Positions 53,673 through 59,330 of a stretch of 64,000 nucleotides of DNA are shown here, piece by piece; the stretch's first letter is position 1, and every line of letters begins with the position of its first letter. A program made the position numbers and the translations under genes. Origin of the DNA: Methylocystis sp. KS32. Lineage in GTDB: Bacteria; Pseudomonadota; Alphaproteobacteria; Rhizobiales; Beijerinckiaceae. The DNA is taken from positions 56,261 to 120,260 of the forward strand of contig PHSQ01000004.1 of the NCBI GenBank assembly GCA_002862095.1, read 5' to 3'. The notes below the pieces were generated by a model, which saw only the letters and a program-made list of their open reading frames with translations, was not told the DNA's origin and ran no database searches.

Positions 53673-55022
53673 TCACTTTCCCGCGAAGGAAACGCGCCAG
53701 ATCGATCCGGCGCCGTCCTCGCTGAACAGCAGCGATCCGTCCTTGGCGACGGCGACGCCGACGGGGCGGCCCCATACATGCCCGTCGTCCAGGACAAATC
53801 CCGTAATGAAATCATCGTATTCGCCGGTAGGCTCGCCATTGGCGAAGCGTAGCCGGACGATCTTGTAGCCGGTGAGCTTGGATCGGTTCCACGAGCCGTG
53901 CAACGCCACGAAGGCGTCGCCTTGGTAGGCGGGAGGGAATTGAGAGCCGTCGTAGAAAACAACGCCAAGCGGCGCGGAGTGAGGTTGAATGAGCACGTCC
54001 GGCGTCGTGACTTTTCCCGCCAAGTCCGTGCGCTCTCCGGCATGGCGCGGGTCTGGATGAGGGCCGATATAATACCAGGGCCAGCCGTAAAACGCCCCTT
54101 CTTTTACCTTCGTGACGTAATCCGGCGGCAGGTCGTCGCCGAGCATGTCCCGTTCATTGACCGCGCACCAGACCTCCTTGCTGCTTGGCCTGATCGCAAG
54201 GCCCGAGCAATTGCGCAGCCCGGTGGCGAATACGCGCCCGTTCCTCCCGTCGGGATCGAGAGCCAGCACTTGGGCGCGTCCTTTCTCGGCGCCCCCCATC
54301 TCTCCGACGACCCCCGTCTTTTCCTCGGCTTGATTTTGCGAAAGGGCGCGCGCCGATAGGCCCTCGGCGACATTCGTTTTCGAGCCGACCGCGACATAAA
54401 GCATGGCGCCATCGGGAGAAAAGGCGATATCGCGCGTCCAATGTCCGCCTCCCGGGGGAAGAGCGGCGATTTTCTCCCTCTCGCCGGACGGCTTGAGCGC
54501 GCCAATGCCGTAAGGATAGCGCAGCACTTGGCTTTCCGTAGCGACGTATAGGTAACGGGGATTCGGCCCTGGCGGGTAAAAGGCTATTCCATATGGCGCA
54601 TCGAGACCTTCGGCGAAAACCTCGTTGATGGCGAGTTTGTCGCCGCTTTCCGACAGACGCAGCGCACGAATCCGCCCGGCGTCGCTTTCGGCGAGGAAAA
54701 TGTCGCCGTTTGGCGCGACTCGCATCGTGCGTGGACCGTTGAAGTCGTGAGCGAGCATCCGAACCTTGAAGCCGTCCGGCGCGTTGGGGCGCGCATCCGA
54801 GGGAAGCGGCGCGATCTCGCTTTGCTTTGCCGCGAGAGAGGTGGCAAAAGGCGGCGGCATATCTTCGACGCCGATCTTATGCCGCACGCCGGGAGAATCG
54901 TCGCGCCAGTCGCCGAATTCGACAGCGCTTGCGCGCTGCTCTTCTCGCGTCGACTGGCCAAACGCGGTGGCGAGAATGACGGCCGCCGACAAGGCTGAGC
55001 CTATAAGCCAGCGATATTTCAT
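53673..55022 (-). CDS. PQQ-dependent sugar/sorbosone dehydrogenase family protein
   Basis: Signal peptide; GHWTR, GLRNCSG, VNERDMLGDDLPPDY, FYGWPW, HSAPLG, HGSWNRS, GRPVGV. Confidence 0.9.
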   Translation of the reverse strand: MKYRWLIGSALSAAVILATAFGQSTREEQRASAVEFGDWRDDSPGVRHKIGVEDMPPPFATSLAAKQSEIAPLPSDARPNAPDGFKVRMLAHDFNGPRTMRVAPNGDIFLAESDAGRIRALRLSESGDKLAINEVFAEGLDAPYGIAFYPPGPNPRYLYVATESQVLRYPYGIGALKPSGEREKIAALPPGGGHWTRDIAFSPDGAMLYVAVGSKTNVAEGLSARALSQNQAEEKTGVVGEMGGAEKGRAQVLALDPDGRNGRVFATGLRNCSGLAIRPSSKEVWCAVNERDMLGDDLPPDYVTKVKEGAFYGWPWYYIGPHPDPRHAGERTDLAGKVTTPDVLIQPHSAPLGVVFYDGSQFPPAYQGDAFVALHGSWNRSKLTGYKIVRLRFANGEPTGEYDDFITGFVLDDGHVWGRPVGVAVAKDGSLLFSEDGAGSIWRVSFAGK

Positions 55023-55343
55023 GACGCCGCTCCCGTTGCATTTGGTTGATGCGTGTCGTCGTGGACGCCGCTTGCCGCGTAGGCGCCACAATGAGCATGC
55101 AAGCATATTGTCATCGCGAACGCCCAAGTAAACAAAATAGAGGGAGGCTCAACATGCGCCGGGACGACTTCCGCCTCGATTAGCGTAATTTAATTTGTCG
55201 GACACAAAAAAGTGGCTGATGGTGCGGAATTCGGGGGCTGAGCGTCCTGTCTTCCGGAGTCGGCTCATGAGGCGCCTGTCGACGCTCGATTAGAGCGCGG
55301 CGCGAGAATTGACAATACTATCAATAAATCGGAGGCCGACTCT

Positions 55344-56114
55344 GTGGGAGATTTGAATACCGCGCTTTATATGAAATTCGAAAATGAGCGGACGCGCGCG
55401 GCGAGCAATCTTCTCGCTCAGGTTCCCGACATTAATCCCAGAATTGTTTACGACCTTGGGTGTGGACCGGGCAACAGCACTCAACTGCTCAGGCGGCGTT
55501 TTCCGTCAGCGTCGGTCATCGGACTCGATAGTTCGAACAATATGCTGCAAGTCGCTCGGAGTCGCGTGACGGGTGCGCAATTCCTCAAGGAGGATATCGA
55601 GTTCTGGCTGCCGCCAAAAGACGTTGACCTGCTCTTCGCCAATGCTTCTCTTCATTTCGTGCGAGACCATTACAAACTCATGGTGCGGCTTGTCTCCTGT
55701 TTGAACGAAGGCGGATGTATCGCCGTGCAAATGCCAAATAACATGCAAGAAGACTCGCATGCGTTGATGCGCATGATCGCGGCGGATGGCCCCTGGGCCG
55801 ATCGCCTCGTGCCGATCGCGAAAACGCGGGCGATCATTGGTCCATCGGACGAATATTATCGTCTGCTTGCGCCAATTTGCTCAAAACTGGATATCTGGCA
55901 GACCACCTATATTCATCCGATCGACACGCCCGATCGTATCGTCGAGTGGTTCGAAGGCGCGGAGTTGCATGCCTTTCTCGAACCCTTATATCCAGAGGAG
56001 CGGGGAGAGTTTTTGGCGCGCTATAGGGCGGCGCTCTCGGAATCCTATGCGCCTCAGCCCGACGGAAAATTCCTGCTGCGCTATCCGCGCCTTTTCTTCG
56101 TCGCGCAGAAGTAA
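55344..56114 (+). CDS. tam: Trans-aconitate 2-methyltransferase
   Basis: Y.KFENERTR, DLGCGPGNST, FANASLH, AVQMP, LLRYPRLFFVA. Confidence 0.92.
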   Translation: MGDLNTALYMKFENERTRAASNLLAQVPDINPRIVYDLGCGPGNSTQLLRRRFPSASVIGLDSSNNMLQVARSRVTGAQFLKEDIEFWLPPKDVDLLFANASLHFVRDHYKLMVRLVSCLNEGGCIAVQMPNNMQEDSHALMRMIAADGPWADRLVPIAKTRAIIGPSDEYYRLLAPICSKLDIWQTTYIHPIDTPDRIVEWFEGAELHAFLEPLYPEERGEFLARYRAALSESYAPQPDGKFLLRYPRLFFVAQK

Positions 56115-56207
56115 CGACGCGCAAATCCGGGAGAGAAATCGGCCGTGACCATTACGATTTATCATAATCGGAATTACGAATTACGGAATTACGGAATTAC
56201 AATTACC

Positions 56208-56414
56208 AATTACGGCGACACGTCCGTCTTTCCCCTTTAAATAGCCGATACAACTCATAATCACCCGCCTCGAAAAAAAACACGGTTGCGCGACGATTGC
56301 CACGCTGGGCGACATGATGCGGAAGGCGGAGGACAACGATAGGGGCGATGCGGGTCATATATTCTCGGTAGCATCGAACAGATATAAGGTAAATACGGTC
56401 GTGTCACCGTAATT
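56208..56414. repeat. ~205-bp direct repeat, copy 1 (MITE-like)
   Basis: Begins AATTACGGCGACACG, ends CGTGTCACCGTAATT (TIR); differs from copy 2 by 6 substitutions and an A8/A5 indel. Confidence 0.92.
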
Positions 56415-56726
56415 GGGAAAAAAGCCTTGAATGTGATCCCTGTTGCTTGTTAACGTGTCGCACAGAGGCATGTCCGTGTCCCCATTCGGCGGGTGATTCG
56501 TCACTGAAACACCATAACCGAACGGGCTGCGGACGGCTTCGCTGCCTCTCATTCAGGCAGAAAAATTCATCGCGGCGCCGCCGTTTTGCAAGTCGCTCTA
56601 ATGGCAAAACGCCAGCGTTCAAACGTTGTTAAACAACTCCCTTGCTGCCGTGTTAGGTCGATAGCGGCGATGTTAGGGAGACAAGAACCTGATGCCTTAT
56701 AACGAGTTAGCAGCCAGGAGTACGCC

Positions 56727-57482
56727 GTGGCAACGACACAACAACGAGATTATTTTGCCGAACATCTACTGCCGGTGGTCGGTAGAAATGCTGAACAACT
56801 CCCCAAGCAGAAACTTACTGGTTTTTTGTCGATGGCGGGACACCTTTACAAAAATGAACTAATGGTTGTAGGTCGGGCCGTCAATGGGTGGGAAGAAGGC
56901 GTTATGCCAAGCGACCTTGCTTCAGCGCGATCAGCGAAGGACTATGCGGAAAAAATTTTTCAAAGCGTAATAGGAAGAAATGGTCAGTGTCCTATGGCCT
57001 GGGTGTCAGATTGTTGGGCTAATCCAGCGAATCCTGAAAGTGATTACAACACCAGAAGATCTGCGTTTTGGAGAGCAATTCGAGGGGTAGTCTCCAAATC
57101 AGGTATCGCCAATACAGACGAAGGAACATGGCCATCCCATCTTGTTTGGTCCAACCTCTACAAAGTTGCTCCAGAGGATGGCGGAAATCCAAGTAACGCC
57201 CTTTGTGAAATTCAATTACCGGGGTGTATTTCTCTTCTTCAGCAAGAAATTTACATTTATCTCCCGCGTCGTTTGTTACTCTTGACCGGCCTAGACTGGG
57301 CAAAACCATTCTTGGAGAATATAGCACCAAATTTTCGTTCGGATTCTGCATACAACTACGTTGAGGCTATCGCTCAAATTGCCCATAGCCCTGGTTGCAC
57401 GTCAAAAGTTGTTGTTGCAGCGCATCCGCAAGGAAGAAATGAGGGTGATTGGGTACAAGACGTCATAAAGGCATTTGAGTGA
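56727..57482 (+). CDS. Uracil-DNA-glycosylase-superfamily-like protein (251 aa), low GC
   Basis: AGGAG RBS with GTG start; LMVVGRAVNGW, WSNLYK, LLLLTG, AAHPQG motifs in UDG-fold order; GC ~38-48% in sampled lines. Confidence 0.7.
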   Translation: MATTQQRDYFAEHLLPVVGRNAEQLPKQKLTGFLSMAGHLYKNELMVVGRAVNGWEEGVMPSDLASARSAKDYAEKIFQSVIGRNGQCPMAWVSDCWANPANPESDYNTRRSAFWRAIRGVVSKSGIANTDEGTWPSHLVWSNLYKVAPEDGGNPSNALCEIQLPGCISLLQQEIYIYLPRRLLLLTGLDWAKPFLENIAPNFRSDSAYNYVEAIAQIAHSPGCTSKVVVAAHPQGRNEGDWVQDVIKAFE

Positions 57483-57552
57483 GGCTTATCCCATATTCCA
57501 TATTATATTACGCACATCATATTACGTATTACGGTGACACGCCCCGTATTGC

Positions 57553-57756
57553 AATTACGGTGACACGCCCGTCTTTCCCCTTTAAATAGCCGATACAACT
57601 CCTAATCGCCCGCCTCGAAAAACACGGTTGCGCGCCGATTGCCACGCTGGGCGACATGATGCGGAAGGCCGAGGACAACGATAGGGGCGATGCGGGTCAT
57701 ATATTCTCGGTAGCATCGAACAGATATAAGGTAAATACGGTCGTGTCACCGTAATT
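57553..57756. repeat. ~205-bp direct repeat, copy 2 (MITE-like)
   Basis: Begins AATTACGGTGACACG, ends CGTGTCACCGTAATT (perfect 15-bp TIR); same orientation as copy 1. Confidence 0.92.
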
Positions 57757-57983
57757 TTGGCGTGTCACCGTAATTACCGTAATTGCCTGTCACCGTAATT
57801 GCCCCGTAATTGGGGCGTGTCACCGTAATTCGTAATTCCGATCATGCTTGGAGCGGGCGAAAGTCCGACTCCGTCAATGACACCACCATTCTGGGGGAGG
57901 ACCACTCCGCCGCAAAGCCCTGCGCTACACTTTCGCCCGCGCCTGCTTTATAGGGAGGGAAACTTGGGCCAGGGAGCGCCCCG

Positions 57984-58496
57984 ATGTTCGACGCGCTTAA
58001 GGATTTTCTTTCCGAATTGGGTGGCGGCGGGACGCCGGCGAGGCAGTTCGAGGCGAGCGACTATCGTCTGGCGGCCGCTGCGCTGCTCGTGCATATCGCC
58101 ACCATCGACGGCGAGTTCGACACCAAGGAGCAGGAGCGTCTTCAGGCGATCGTCGAGAGTCGTTTCGGGCTGGATCGAGCCGCCGCGCGAGAATTGATCG
58201 CGCACGCCGCCGAGAGCGAGCGAGACGCGGTCGATCTCTTCCGATTCACAAGTGTCTTGAAGCGCATGTTGGATCAAGAAGGCCGCAAGCAGGTCGTCGC
58301 CATGTTGTGGGAGATGGCCTATGCCGATGGCTCGGTCCACGAGTTTGAAGAAAACGTGGTTTGGCGGGTCGCGGAATTGCTCGGCGTTTCGACGCGCGAT
58401 CGGATGATGTTGCGCAAGGACGCCCGGGAGGACGCCGCCACCCATGACGCTGACGCCAATAAAAATTCTGTTCCTGGTCCCTGGTCTAAGTCCTGA
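57984..58496 (+). CDS. TerB-family protein
   Basis: AALLVHIATIDG....E, RFGLD, DLFRFTS, MLWEMAYADG..HEFEENVVWRVAELLGV. Confidence 0.88.
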   Translation: MFDALKDFLSELGGGGTPARQFEASDYRLAAAALLVHIATIDGEFDTKEQERLQAIVESRFGLDRAAARELIAHAAESERDAVDLFRFTSVLKRMLDQEGRKQVVAMLWEMAYADGSVHEFEENVVWRVAELLGVSTRDRMMLRKDAREDAATHDADANKNSVPGPWSKS

Positions 58497-58529
58497 AGGG
58501 ATCGCCTGCGCTTTAGAGGGATTTTCTGA

Positions 58530-59330
58530 ATGAACGAGCTAGGCATGAGCCCGAGAAGGGCTACCATCGTCACCGGCGCGTCTGAAGGAATAGGCGCGGA
58601 ACTCGCCCGCGTCTTTGCTTGGAAAGGCCATGAGGTCGTGCTCGTGGCGCGCCGTCGCGAGAAACTCGAGGCGCTCGCGTCCGAGATTTGTTCGAAAGGC
58701 GGCAAGGCCCATGTCGTGGAACTCGATCTTTGTGGCGAGGGCGCCATCGACGTTTTGGAAAAGGCTTTGGAGCAAGCCGGGCTCACGCCCGAAATTCTCG
58801 TCAACAACGCCGGCTTCGGCTTGATCGGTCCGACGGCGAAGCTCGACCAAGCCGAGCAACTGGCGATGGTCGATTTGAACGTCGGGGCGCTGACGGCGCT
58901 GACGTTGCGCTTTCTCAAACCGATTATCGCGACGAGAGGGGCGGTTTTGAACGTCGCCTCCATCGCCGCTTTCATGCCGGGTCCGAACTTCGCGATTTAT
59001 TACGCGACCAAGGCCTATGTCCGATCCTTCAGCGAGGCGCTCGCGGAGGAGATGGCGCCGCTGGGCGTAAAGGTCTCGTGCCTTTGTCCAGGGCCGGTCG
59101 TGACCGGGTTCCAGGCTCGCGCCGGGTTCGATTTCTCGGGGGCGATGTCCGCGATGAAGGCGTCGCTCGTTTCGGCCGAAGAGGTGGCGCGGCAGGGCTA
59201 TGAAGGGTTAGTCGCCGGCAAACGTGTCGTGATCCCCGGCGCGATGAACAAGTTTACCGTCGCCTTCGCGCGTCTTGCGCCTCGGGCGGTCCTGATGCCC
59301 ATCCTGGCGTTCGCCCAGAATGGCCGCTGA
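58530..59330 (+). CDS. Short-chain dehydrogenase/reductase
   Basis: TGASEGIG, NNAGFG, ASIAAF, YYATK (YxxxK), CPGPV.T. Confidence 0.93.
   Translation: MNELGMSPRRATIVTGASEGIGAELARVFAWKGHEVVLVARRREKLEALASEICSKGGKAHVVELDLCGEGAIDVLEKALEQAGLTPEILVNNAGFGLIGPTAKLDQAEQLAMVDLNVGALTALTLRFLKPIIATRGAVLNVASIAAFMPGPNFAIYYATKAYVRSFSEALAEEMAPLGVKVSCLCPGPVVTGFQARAGFDFSGAMSAMKASLVSAEEVARQGYEGLVAGKRVVIPGAMNKFTVAFARLAPRAVLMPILAFAQNGR

Follow-up and report, generated by a model that had tools for sequence, protein, structure and literature searches.

The 64-kb stretch of DNA analysed here (the window) belongs to contig PHSQ01000004.1 of Methylocystis sp. KS32, and all coordinates below are positions in it. Between a tam-like methyltransferase gene and terB lies a block, 56170-57842, in which two copies of a short repeated unit enclose a single intact gene of low GC content, the cargo gene, with arrays of whole or partial unit ends on both outer sides. 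Sequence comparison identifies the units as internally deleted derivatives, similar to miniature inverted-repeat transposable elements (MITEs), of TIRtrons, elements in which a Y1 tyrosine transposase gene of the TIRYT type lies between long terminal inverted repeats (TIRs); about 40 codons of that gene are kept. Low-GC genes bracketed by ends of this family recur in other genomes. The features of the locus are listed here, the word stutter denoting tandem copies of the outermost part of an end and L numbers denoting the loci used for comparison.

56145..56169, plus strand: arsC remnant, start codon plus 8 codons (VTITIYHN), from its alignment with L009, L005 and L007 and from searches of L009 by blastn and tblastn
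56167..56186: left arm of the outer inverted repeat; first 3 nt arsC, remainder stutter
56170..56206: left stutter, in which the end's outermost 8 nt (GGAATTAC/AATTACGG) are repeated in tandem about five times and the GACACG core is missing
56203..56358, minus strand: unit-1 open reading frame (ORF) of 51 codons; residues 1 to about 40 correspond to a TIRYT-type Y1 N-terminus, the tail to TIR read-through
56207..56414, minus strand: unit 1, 208 bp; 3' TIR at 56208-56222 and inward, 5' TIR at 56400-56414
56415..56705: spacer of 291 bp that separates the cargo gene from unit 1; its GC content is about 0.53
56727..57482, plus strand: cargo gene, intact, 251 aa, uncharacterised family with a predicted uracil-DNA glycosylase (UDG)-superfamily fold
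57521..57545: extra left-type end, ATTACGTATTACGGTGACACGCCCC, pairing with 57812-57836 (25 nt, 96%)
57552..57756, minus strand: unit 2, 205 bp, a direct-orientation copy of unit 1 with an in-frame stop in the transposase remnant
57757..57842: right array, with right-type ends at 57759-57775, 57785-57803 and 57812-57830 and partial CCGTAATT/CGTAATT copies
57823..57842: right arm of the outer inverted repeat, terminating the right array
57843..57919: orphan stretch, 77 bp outside the outer repeat, absent from L009

The layout of unit, cargo and unit, with stutters inside a 20-bp perfect outer inverted repeat, had been described in an original prediction made from these letters, and it is borne out by sequence reading and a repeat search. 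The same is true of the direct repeats of about 205 bp, for which the alignment of 56207-56414 with 57552-57756 (208 and 205 bp) gives 6 substitutions and one 3-bp indel. Each of the two is bounded by AATTACGGYGACACG and CGTGTCACCGTAATT and starts with AATTACGG(C/T)GACACG, and the complementarity of the terminal arms continues imperfectly to about 30 nt (59 nt at 71% in the repeat search). Since the homology between the units begins and ends precisely at the end motifs, they are discrete, TIR-bounded, non-autonomous elements, as had been proposed. Every end contains a small hairpin of 4-6 bp, TACGG(T)...(A)CCGTA, and the 5' end motif scores as terminator-like on the minus strand, where the hairpin is followed by a T-run. 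The outer inverted repeat (56167-56186 and 57823-57842) matches at 20 of 20 positions and over 24 nt at 96%. Its match was thus read correctly, but the first 3 nt of the left arm (ATC) are coding sequence of host arsC, as are its first 7 nt if one mismatch is allowed.

With up to 2 mismatches, GTGTCACCGTAATT is matched 9 times where 0.17 matches are expected; 8 of these lie within 56208-57830, a cluster of 8 end copies, and no genuine copy of this motif is found in the remaining ~62 kb of the window. Similarly, 11 of the 12 matches to CCGTAATT (1.24 expected) are inside the block. Tandem Repeats Finder delimits the 8-mer array on the left side at 56169-56215 (6.4 copies, period 8), and the array on the right, 57748-57837, is built of whole and partial end motifs. 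The pairing of 57521-57545 with 57812-57836 implies that unit 2 is nested in an outer pair of ends. A promoter scan of the locus gave no sigma-70-like site, and Rfam gave no match in 55000-59000. By blastn, the left stutter (56171-56214) matches plasmids of Dolichospermum, Tolypothrix and Microchaete at 91-93% over 44 nt; these carry tandem repeats of the AATTACG type, which are simple repeats and probably unrelated, and they were the only matches of the unit among plasmids.

The minus-strand ORF of each unit begins MTRIAPIVVLRLPHHVAQRGNRR. An exhaustive HMMER search of 1.84 billion representative proteins with the 51-residue ORF of unit 1 recovered 450 relatives. PF01797 (Y1_Tnp) is present in 7 of the 10 longer relatives that were scanned, with 6 exceeding the gathering score. 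Against NCBIfam, six PF01797-containing relatives have as their top match the transposase associated with repetitive extragenic palindromes (REPs), the REP-associated tyrosine transposase or RAYT (REP_Tyr_transpos), at scores under the cutoff, and the IS200 model NF033573 reaches only 16 bits for a cutoff of 55. In the alignment, the homology of the unit ORF spans residue 1 to about 40 (...GDYELYR) and stops ahead of both the HUH motif (PNHVH) and the catalytic tyrosine, which makes the units internal-deletion derivatives; with these motifs missing and a stop in unit 2, the window copies are not autonomous members of the family. The last codons of the unit-1 ORF are the end repeat translated in frame, so that a unit is composed of a 5' end repeat, a 56-nt leader, about 40 codons and a 3' end repeat. 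The deletion was mapped by blastn, which aligns unit 1 with full elements in L034, L110, L089 and L079, and tblastn of the 56203-56358 ORF gives E values of 1e-9 to 1e-12.

Several generic traits of MITEs are seen here: a length under 300 bp (205-208 bp), bounding TIRs, no functional gene, several copies and an internal deletion. A flanking target-site duplication, another such trait, is not present. Two ORFs on one contig of another NCBI genome (P0121 and P0392) share the deletion junction of the window units, indicating that the 205-bp form is a propagating MITE subfamily and not the outcome of gene decay in place. A 20-mer over the junction, unique to the unit, had 0 matches in a metagenome scan. 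The unit ORF (45-51 aa) has no match in Pfam, NCBIfam or PDB sequence searches, a single 41-aa match in a word-indexed protein search, and none by tblastn against plasmids; a protein-pattern scan of genome contigs matched 595 stretches, of which 0 were confirmed. The family was recognised through the exhaustive HMMER search alone. Many relatives of the unit ORF (P0242-P0391) are themselves ORFs of 40-130 aa that diverge at varied points past the N-terminus, and truncated or frameshifted copies are therefore plentiful among the genes called for this family in public data.

Since many short relatives in the protein library have heads or tails that translate the end motif (ITVT..., NYGD..., DYGDYG...), genomes were scanned at the DNA level. 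The 19-mer ATTACGGYGACACGNCCGT, with one genome per species, gave at least 112 loci, and about 82 of those listed are true family loci, nearly all from Alphaproteobacteria. Hosts include Roseiarcus (among them R. fermentans DSM 24875) and metagenome-assembled genomes (MAGs) of Hyphomicrobiales and Methylobacteriaceae, and copies can be numerous, with at least 6 loci in Methylocapsa sp. S129, at least 5 in Novosphingobium sp. B 225 and at least 5-6 in several Roseiarcus MAGs. Matches in Clostridia (L013, L031, L061, L062 and L059, from Lachnospiraceae and relatives) were excluded from the counts; there the 19-mer sits in conserved coding sequence (...MHYGDTTV...), a chance or coding match. Among the matches listed, a Y1 gene adjoins the motif at 19 loci. 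At L021, L071, L102, L043 and L110 a near-full-length Y1 gene (about 200-230 query residues) lies between inverted ends about 750 bp apart, and at L114, L089, L104 and L079 the gene is broken by frameshifts or gaps. The search for an HUH or RAYT-like transposase bounded by the same ends, which the original prediction had suggested, thus led to intact Y1 genes in other genomes. The L021 and L102 proteins match PF01797, and the former (221 aa, from Novosphingobium sp. B 225, L021 5620-6285) contains PNHVH, LWQGRF and RYVALNP; the same NHVH, WQ and Y..LNP motifs align in the relatives P0389 and P0318. In intact relatives, as in the window units, 45-55 nt separate the ATG from the end motif upstream of it. 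Miniature derivatives come in several sizes, i.e., about 88 nt (several copies in Methylocapsa, in both orientations), 110-160 nt and 205 nt.

These data assign the unit ends, on sequence grounds, to a described but barely studied family. Di Nocera, De Gregorio and Rocco (2013; PMC3733652) named TIRYT/TIRtron those RAYT-like genes that have long inverted repeats with a GGGGWSAS core, and described moderately abundant repeat families in dimers and clusters. The elements considered here share the Y1 gene between long TIRs (about 30 nt, imperfect, in units and around intact genes, in place of GTAG REP hairpins) and the moderate abundance as singles, dimers and clusters. Their core (GGTGACAC) fits GGGGWSAS at 7 of 8 positions and, at its fixed short distance from the gene, may correspond to the described one; the autonomous form has a Y1 gene of about 220-235 aa, TIRs of about 30 nt and a length of about 750 bp. 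Most TIRYTs belong to TnpAY1 subclass 2.1 (NHVH, W[EQ], Y[IV]xLNP, ~238 aa with an HTH-like tail at the C-terminus) of Quentin, Siguier, Chandler and Fichant (2018; PMC6006769), which equals Bertels group 1, and the full-length relatives, with NHVH, WQ and Y[IV]xLNP in about 220-235 aa, are alike in this respect. The original prediction, which did not recognise the ends from named IS families, is superseded in this respect. The window copies differ from described TIRtrons in being internally deleted, with 40 codons and neither HUH nor tyrosine motif, and neither PMC3733652 nor the one other paper using the term in the library searched describes MITEs that carry gene fragments, a terminal stutter or low-GC cargo genes between ends. 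Furthermore, PMC6006769 saw no REP-like structures near the subclass 2.1 genes and no typical insertion sequence features, whereas clear TIRs, multiple copies per genome and truncated or miniature derivatives are found here. The kind of element is thus already known; what appears to be new is that its MITEs carry gene fragments, that its ends stutter and that low-GC orphan genes are repeatedly bracketed by them.

Other systems resemble these elements in part. REPIN-RAYT systems (PMC3116915) and the REPtrons of Nunvar and Ton-Hoang also have a Y1 gene between inverted short repeats that are dispersed in the genome, and a REPIN, like the 88-nt Methylocapsa copies, joins two inverted repeats and a short spacer into a hairpin-like unit. 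In contrast to these, the window ends contain no GTAG tag or foot and only a 4-6-bp hairpin each, the copy number is apparently far lower (none elsewhere in the 64-kb window), the units hold transposase remnants, and REPINs have not been reported to bracket cargo. With the IS200/IS605 elements IS608 and ISDra2 the family shares HUH Y1 catalysis, the lack of a target duplication and small hairpins near the ends, and a TTAC that may lie at the outer boundary is reminiscent of the target of IS608; those elements differ in having no TIRs, a TnpA of about 150 aa with a Y...Q motif, often tnpB, and ends that are asymmetric on one strand. Integron mobilisation units and IS26 pseudo-compound transposons are alike in that a passenger gene lies between two short elements, non-autonomous or identical, and in the IS26 case also in the direct repeats and the absence of a duplication around the composite. 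Those systems use DDE transposases, whereas the parent here is an HUH Y1 element and the mobility of the composite is something that we infer. Fragments of IS110-family transposase genes lie beside the end motif in L039 (4885-5217, with PF01548) and also in L034, L038, L089, L012 and L121, so the ends may be insertion targets of IS110-type elements. REPs in Pseudomonas are such targets.

The stutter is not confined to the window. At 50 of the 126 family ends, and at 0 in the control, the outermost 7-mer of the end recurs exactly within 36 nt outside it. The copied unit includes the variable first base, indicating that the stutter arises in situ. In L043 (6260-7610), a near-full-length TIRtron (Y1 match over query residues 13-211) is followed by tandem partial duplications of 213 and 313 bp, each starting inside the gene, reaching to the 5' end repeat and abutting the previous end exactly, and then by an CCGTAATCC stutter. 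The stutter and these duplications together suggest that the outer boundary of the repeat is nicked and rejoined repeatedly, or that slippage takes place there. We know of no described mechanism for the stutter.

The cargo gene stands out from its surroundings. The segment 56415-57526 has a GC content of 0.478 for a window mean of 0.610, below every other stretch of the same size in the window. The 251-aa protein has 756 homologues that are scattered across phyla, none with a Pfam domain, and it has no Pfam, PADLOC or NCBIfam match itself. By composition and phylogenetic scatter the gene is horizontally acquired, in agreement with the earlier view of it as foreign; the low GC content given there also holds, with a gap to the host of 13 points and not 15. 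Its AlphaFold2 model is predicted with high confidence (pLDDT 94.3), and Foldseek matches this model to UdgX, TDG and family-4 UDG at E values of 1e-5 to 1e-4, with good probability and moderate TM scores (0.42-0.55), as well as to viral UDGs. No solved structure is matched at the sequence level. An invariant AHPQG in the homologues resembles UDG motif B (HPS), and GRAVNGW sits at the position expected for motif A. The cargo thus has a predicted UDG-superfamily fold and fits no known family. For Brig1 (PMC11078745) and Brig2 (bioRxiv 10.1101/2025.10.29.685425), divergent proteins of the UDG fold carried by mobile elements, defence against phages whose bases are modified was recently shown, and by analogy a defence role of the cargo is plausible; the neighbourhoods of its homologues are no more than suggestive of one.

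At the nucleotide level the cargo is 91% identical to two metagenome contigs across the ORF only, and the homology to L001/L002 begins at 56706. The 291-bp spacer (56415-56705) is not common to the contexts of the closest cargo homologues, and its origin as a remnant of genes neighbouring the cargo was rejected. Immediate neighbours of the homologues differ between contexts; in L122-L125 they lie beside SIR2, ResIII or DUF4276 genes, or on a plasmid-like contig with ParA, RepA_C, TraY and ParE.

Relatives of the host region, in Methylocystis heyeri and in metagenomic loci, were reached through TerB homologues. Their gene order is pepN, a GSDH-type dehydrogenase gene, tam, an ArsC-family gene (118-140 aa, PF03960), terB and an SDR gene, and the whole block is absent from those examined. 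With L009, its closest relative, the window shares 93% identity as far as 56169, which is arsC codon 9, and the homology resumes at about 57920, where L009 positions 710-890 match window 57920-58100. With breakpoints at 56169/56170 and about 57920, some 415 bp of host DNA, from arsC codon 9 to its end, have been swapped for 1750 bp. Insertion into an empty tam-terB spacer, as originally envisaged, is thereby replaced by the loss of arsC from codon 9 onwards, the relatives carrying arsC at this place. The proposed 5-bp target duplication, ATCAT, fares no better: its left copy (56161-65) consists of arsC codons, is conserved in relatives without the element and lies 4 nt from the junction. No target duplication is found at the window block, nor around some six miniature copies, in Methylocapsa and elsewhere, whose flanks were inspected by eye. 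HUH Y1 enzymes are not expected to generate one.

The 77 bp at 57843-57919 have no match in any fetched locus, and tblastn against L009 ruled them out as an arsC remnant; they may be a diverged intergenic remnant or DNA derived from the junction. A 15-nt inverted repeat (57850-57864 and 57929-57943) joins this stretch to the conserved region upstream of terB; it may represent a palindrome of the operator kind or else a short duplication, inverted, that arose as the junction formed. On the other side, the tam-like gene and its upstream spacer (55130-56114) have a GC content of 0.52-0.57, for 0.60-0.65 around them; tam is syntenic in every relative examined, so that its low GC is not a sign of recent acquisition. 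The arsC neighbourhood is insertion-prone. In L006 (2209-4534), genes for an IS1595-type and an IS4-type transposase lie between pepN and the dehydrogenase gene, two genes from the arsC site.

Neighbouring pairs of ends 300-3000 bp apart were classified in the at least 112 listed loci by orientation, and the GC content between them was compared with that of the locus and with stretches of the same size:

Right-type then left-type (outward-facing): n=21, GC -13.3 points relative to the locus, 14 in the lowest 2% of same-size stretches
Left-type then right-type (Y1 genes): n=11, GC +1.6 points, 1 in the lowest 2%
Right-right pairs: n=6, GC -1.8 points, 0 in the lowest 2%
Left-left pairs: n=8, GC -4.3 points, 2 in the lowest 2%

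The low-GC outward-facing segments contain one or two small ORFs, mostly without a Pfam domain, and in L067, L071 and L105 the cargo ORF starts or stops within 20-45 nt of the ends. The pairing of units or ends around low-GC cargo elsewhere, which the original prediction would require, is seen at several loci. For example, in L119 two units of about 160 bp, which align clearly better in direct than in inverted orientation, surround a single 134-aa DUF4440 gene (GC 0.50 vs 0.64), repeating the window layout. In L071 a miniature unit is followed by a 142-aa orphan at GC 0.34 and then by a full TIRtron, and in L079 an 88-nt unit is followed by an RHS toxin tip with a partner ORF and then by a TIRtron whose Y1 gene is gapped. 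The trend was reproduced, more weakly, when JGI metagenome contigs were scanned independently: 13 outward-facing segments average -7.3 points, the other classes being at or above zero. A conserved target motif outside the ends was looked for and rejected, as none was seen.

Our preferred reading, to which we give slightly better than even chances, is that a full-length TIRYT acting in trans recognises a pair of left-type and right-type ends and moves the enclosed gene as a composite. A foreign gene would become enclosed between two TIRtron copies, and the DNA from the outermost left-type end to the outermost right-type end would then have been moved or placed here in trans, by the duplication-free single-strand cut-and-join chemistry of an HUH Y1 enzyme, with the adjacent deletion of arsC accompanying or following this step. 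For the block to be mobile now, the genome would have to encode a matching TIRYT at another place. We infer from the locus and its relatives that TIRYT acts on the ends, that the composite moved as one piece and that the events had this order. The small hairpin in each end, a feature also of HUH Y1 substrates, speaks for this reading. Several observations weigh against this reading. The site is not a clean insertion, since 415 bp of the host are deleted and 77 bp are unexplained, and an intact site is seen at no more than 93% identity, in the closest relative; the events are therefore not recent, and their order cannot be read from the comparison. No full-length Y1 gene is present in the 64-kb window, and no second copy of the window composite or of its cargo with the same ends was found. 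Only about 5 of the 13 outward-facing metagenome segments are strongly low in GC, and the flanking units are inverted in L079 and L039, which refutes a strict rule of direct orientation. In addition, no transposition or cleavage by a TIRYT is reported in PMC3733652 or PMC6006769.

The main rival is that the foreign gene and the miniatures arrived separately, the gene entering arsC by another route, such as illegitimate or homologous recombination after transformation or conjugation, and the miniatures inserting independently on each side, either because AT-rich foreign DNA offers more of their preferred targets or because existing arrays of ends attract copies; the bracketing would then be a by-product. 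We think this unlikely, though it has to be reckoned with, given that the ends contain TTAC/GTAA and AT-rich outer bases, so that AT-rich DNA could be a preferred target, that they cluster and nest (unit 2 inside an outer pair; arrays in L043, L072 and L084), that no cargo is common to two of the loci compared, that cargo segments in L053 and L067 are flanked by single ends without a visible partner, and that about half of the metagenome segments between ends are host-like in GC. It accounts poorly, however, for a low GC content that is confined between the ends and host-like directly outside, and for cargo ORFs that reach to within 20-45 nt of the ends on both sides (L067, L071 and L105), which would be rare under random insertion; moreover, the ends have no flank motif in common. 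An improbable alternative is that a circle with one unit and the cargo recombined with a resident unit, homologously or through a Y1 enzyme acting on two equivalent ends, like the translocatable units of IS26. Direct-repeat units without a target duplication, the same layout in L119 and the 3% divergence of the units, as expected if two different copies recombined, would agree with it, and IS200/IS605 relatives are generally known to move through single-strand circles. But no solo unit occupies the site in any relative examined, and the model by itself leaves the loss of arsC and the end arrays unexplained.

The remaining explanations are harder to defend. A domesticated cluster similar to REPs or bacterial interspersed mosaic elements (BIMEs), with a host role in transcription termination or mRNA stability and an incidental neighbouring gene, is quite improbable: domestication is assumed for RAYT-like genes, and host roles for their repeats (PMC5581495, PMC3733652), and the terminator-like 5' end motif would suit such a role, yet a palindrome with a GTAG tag is missing, the other 62 kb of the window lack the motif, fragments of a decaying gene are found in the units and relatives exist without the whole block. 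A classical GTAG REP was rejected for want of the GTAG foot. The analogy drawn in the original prediction to an integron mobilisation unit, i.e., a composite of DDE-type MITEs with a 5-bp ATCAT duplication, draws on the TIR-bounded units, the outer inverted repeat and the ATCAT near both ends. It fails mechanistically and is very improbable, because the left ATCAT derives from arsC, the family copies inspected show no duplication, as expected for HUH Y1, and the only transposase gene ever found between these ends is that of a Y1 HUH enzyme. Finally, repeats of about 205 bp can mislead short-read assemblers, and a collapsed or mis-joined repeat would then mimic the layout. Such an artefact is hardly credible here, as the two units differ from each other at 6 positions and by an indel, their flanks differ, the cargo ORF is intact and conserved, and analogous layouts occur in independent assemblies.

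A wider reading, which we put forward tentatively and consider doubtful, is that TIRtron ends and their miniatures bound single-gene cassettes, and that a RAYT-like Y1 enzyme, of a type viewed until now as domesticated or as a transposase that carries no cargo, captures and shuttles small foreign genes in Alphaproteobacteria. The UDG-fold protein and the RHS toxin tip would be among the candidate anti-phage cargo, integron cassettes, or IS608 left-end/right-end transposition, would have their single-strand counterpart in this system, and the stutter, at 40% of ends, would be the footprint of the cleavage and rejoining chemistry. About one bacterial species in four has RAYT-like tyrosine transposases. 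To our knowledge, such enzymes outside IS200/IS605 have no demonstrated transposition and no known passengers, and the TIRtron family may be an unrecognised gene carrier. If this is true, it would represent a widespread but overlooked route of gene acquisition in soil and peat Alphaproteobacteria such as methanotrophs, Roseiarcus and Novosphingobium, annotation pipelines should not call the 40-130-aa "transposase" fragments genes, and one small enzyme with a 30-nt end would offer a simple test bed for the handling of inverted-repeat substrates by HUH enzymes. For Methylocystis sp. KS32 itself, the local event means that arsC, a homologue of glutaredoxin-type arsenate reductases, was lost and a gene with a predicted UDG fold was gained, a swap whose phenotype can be tested.

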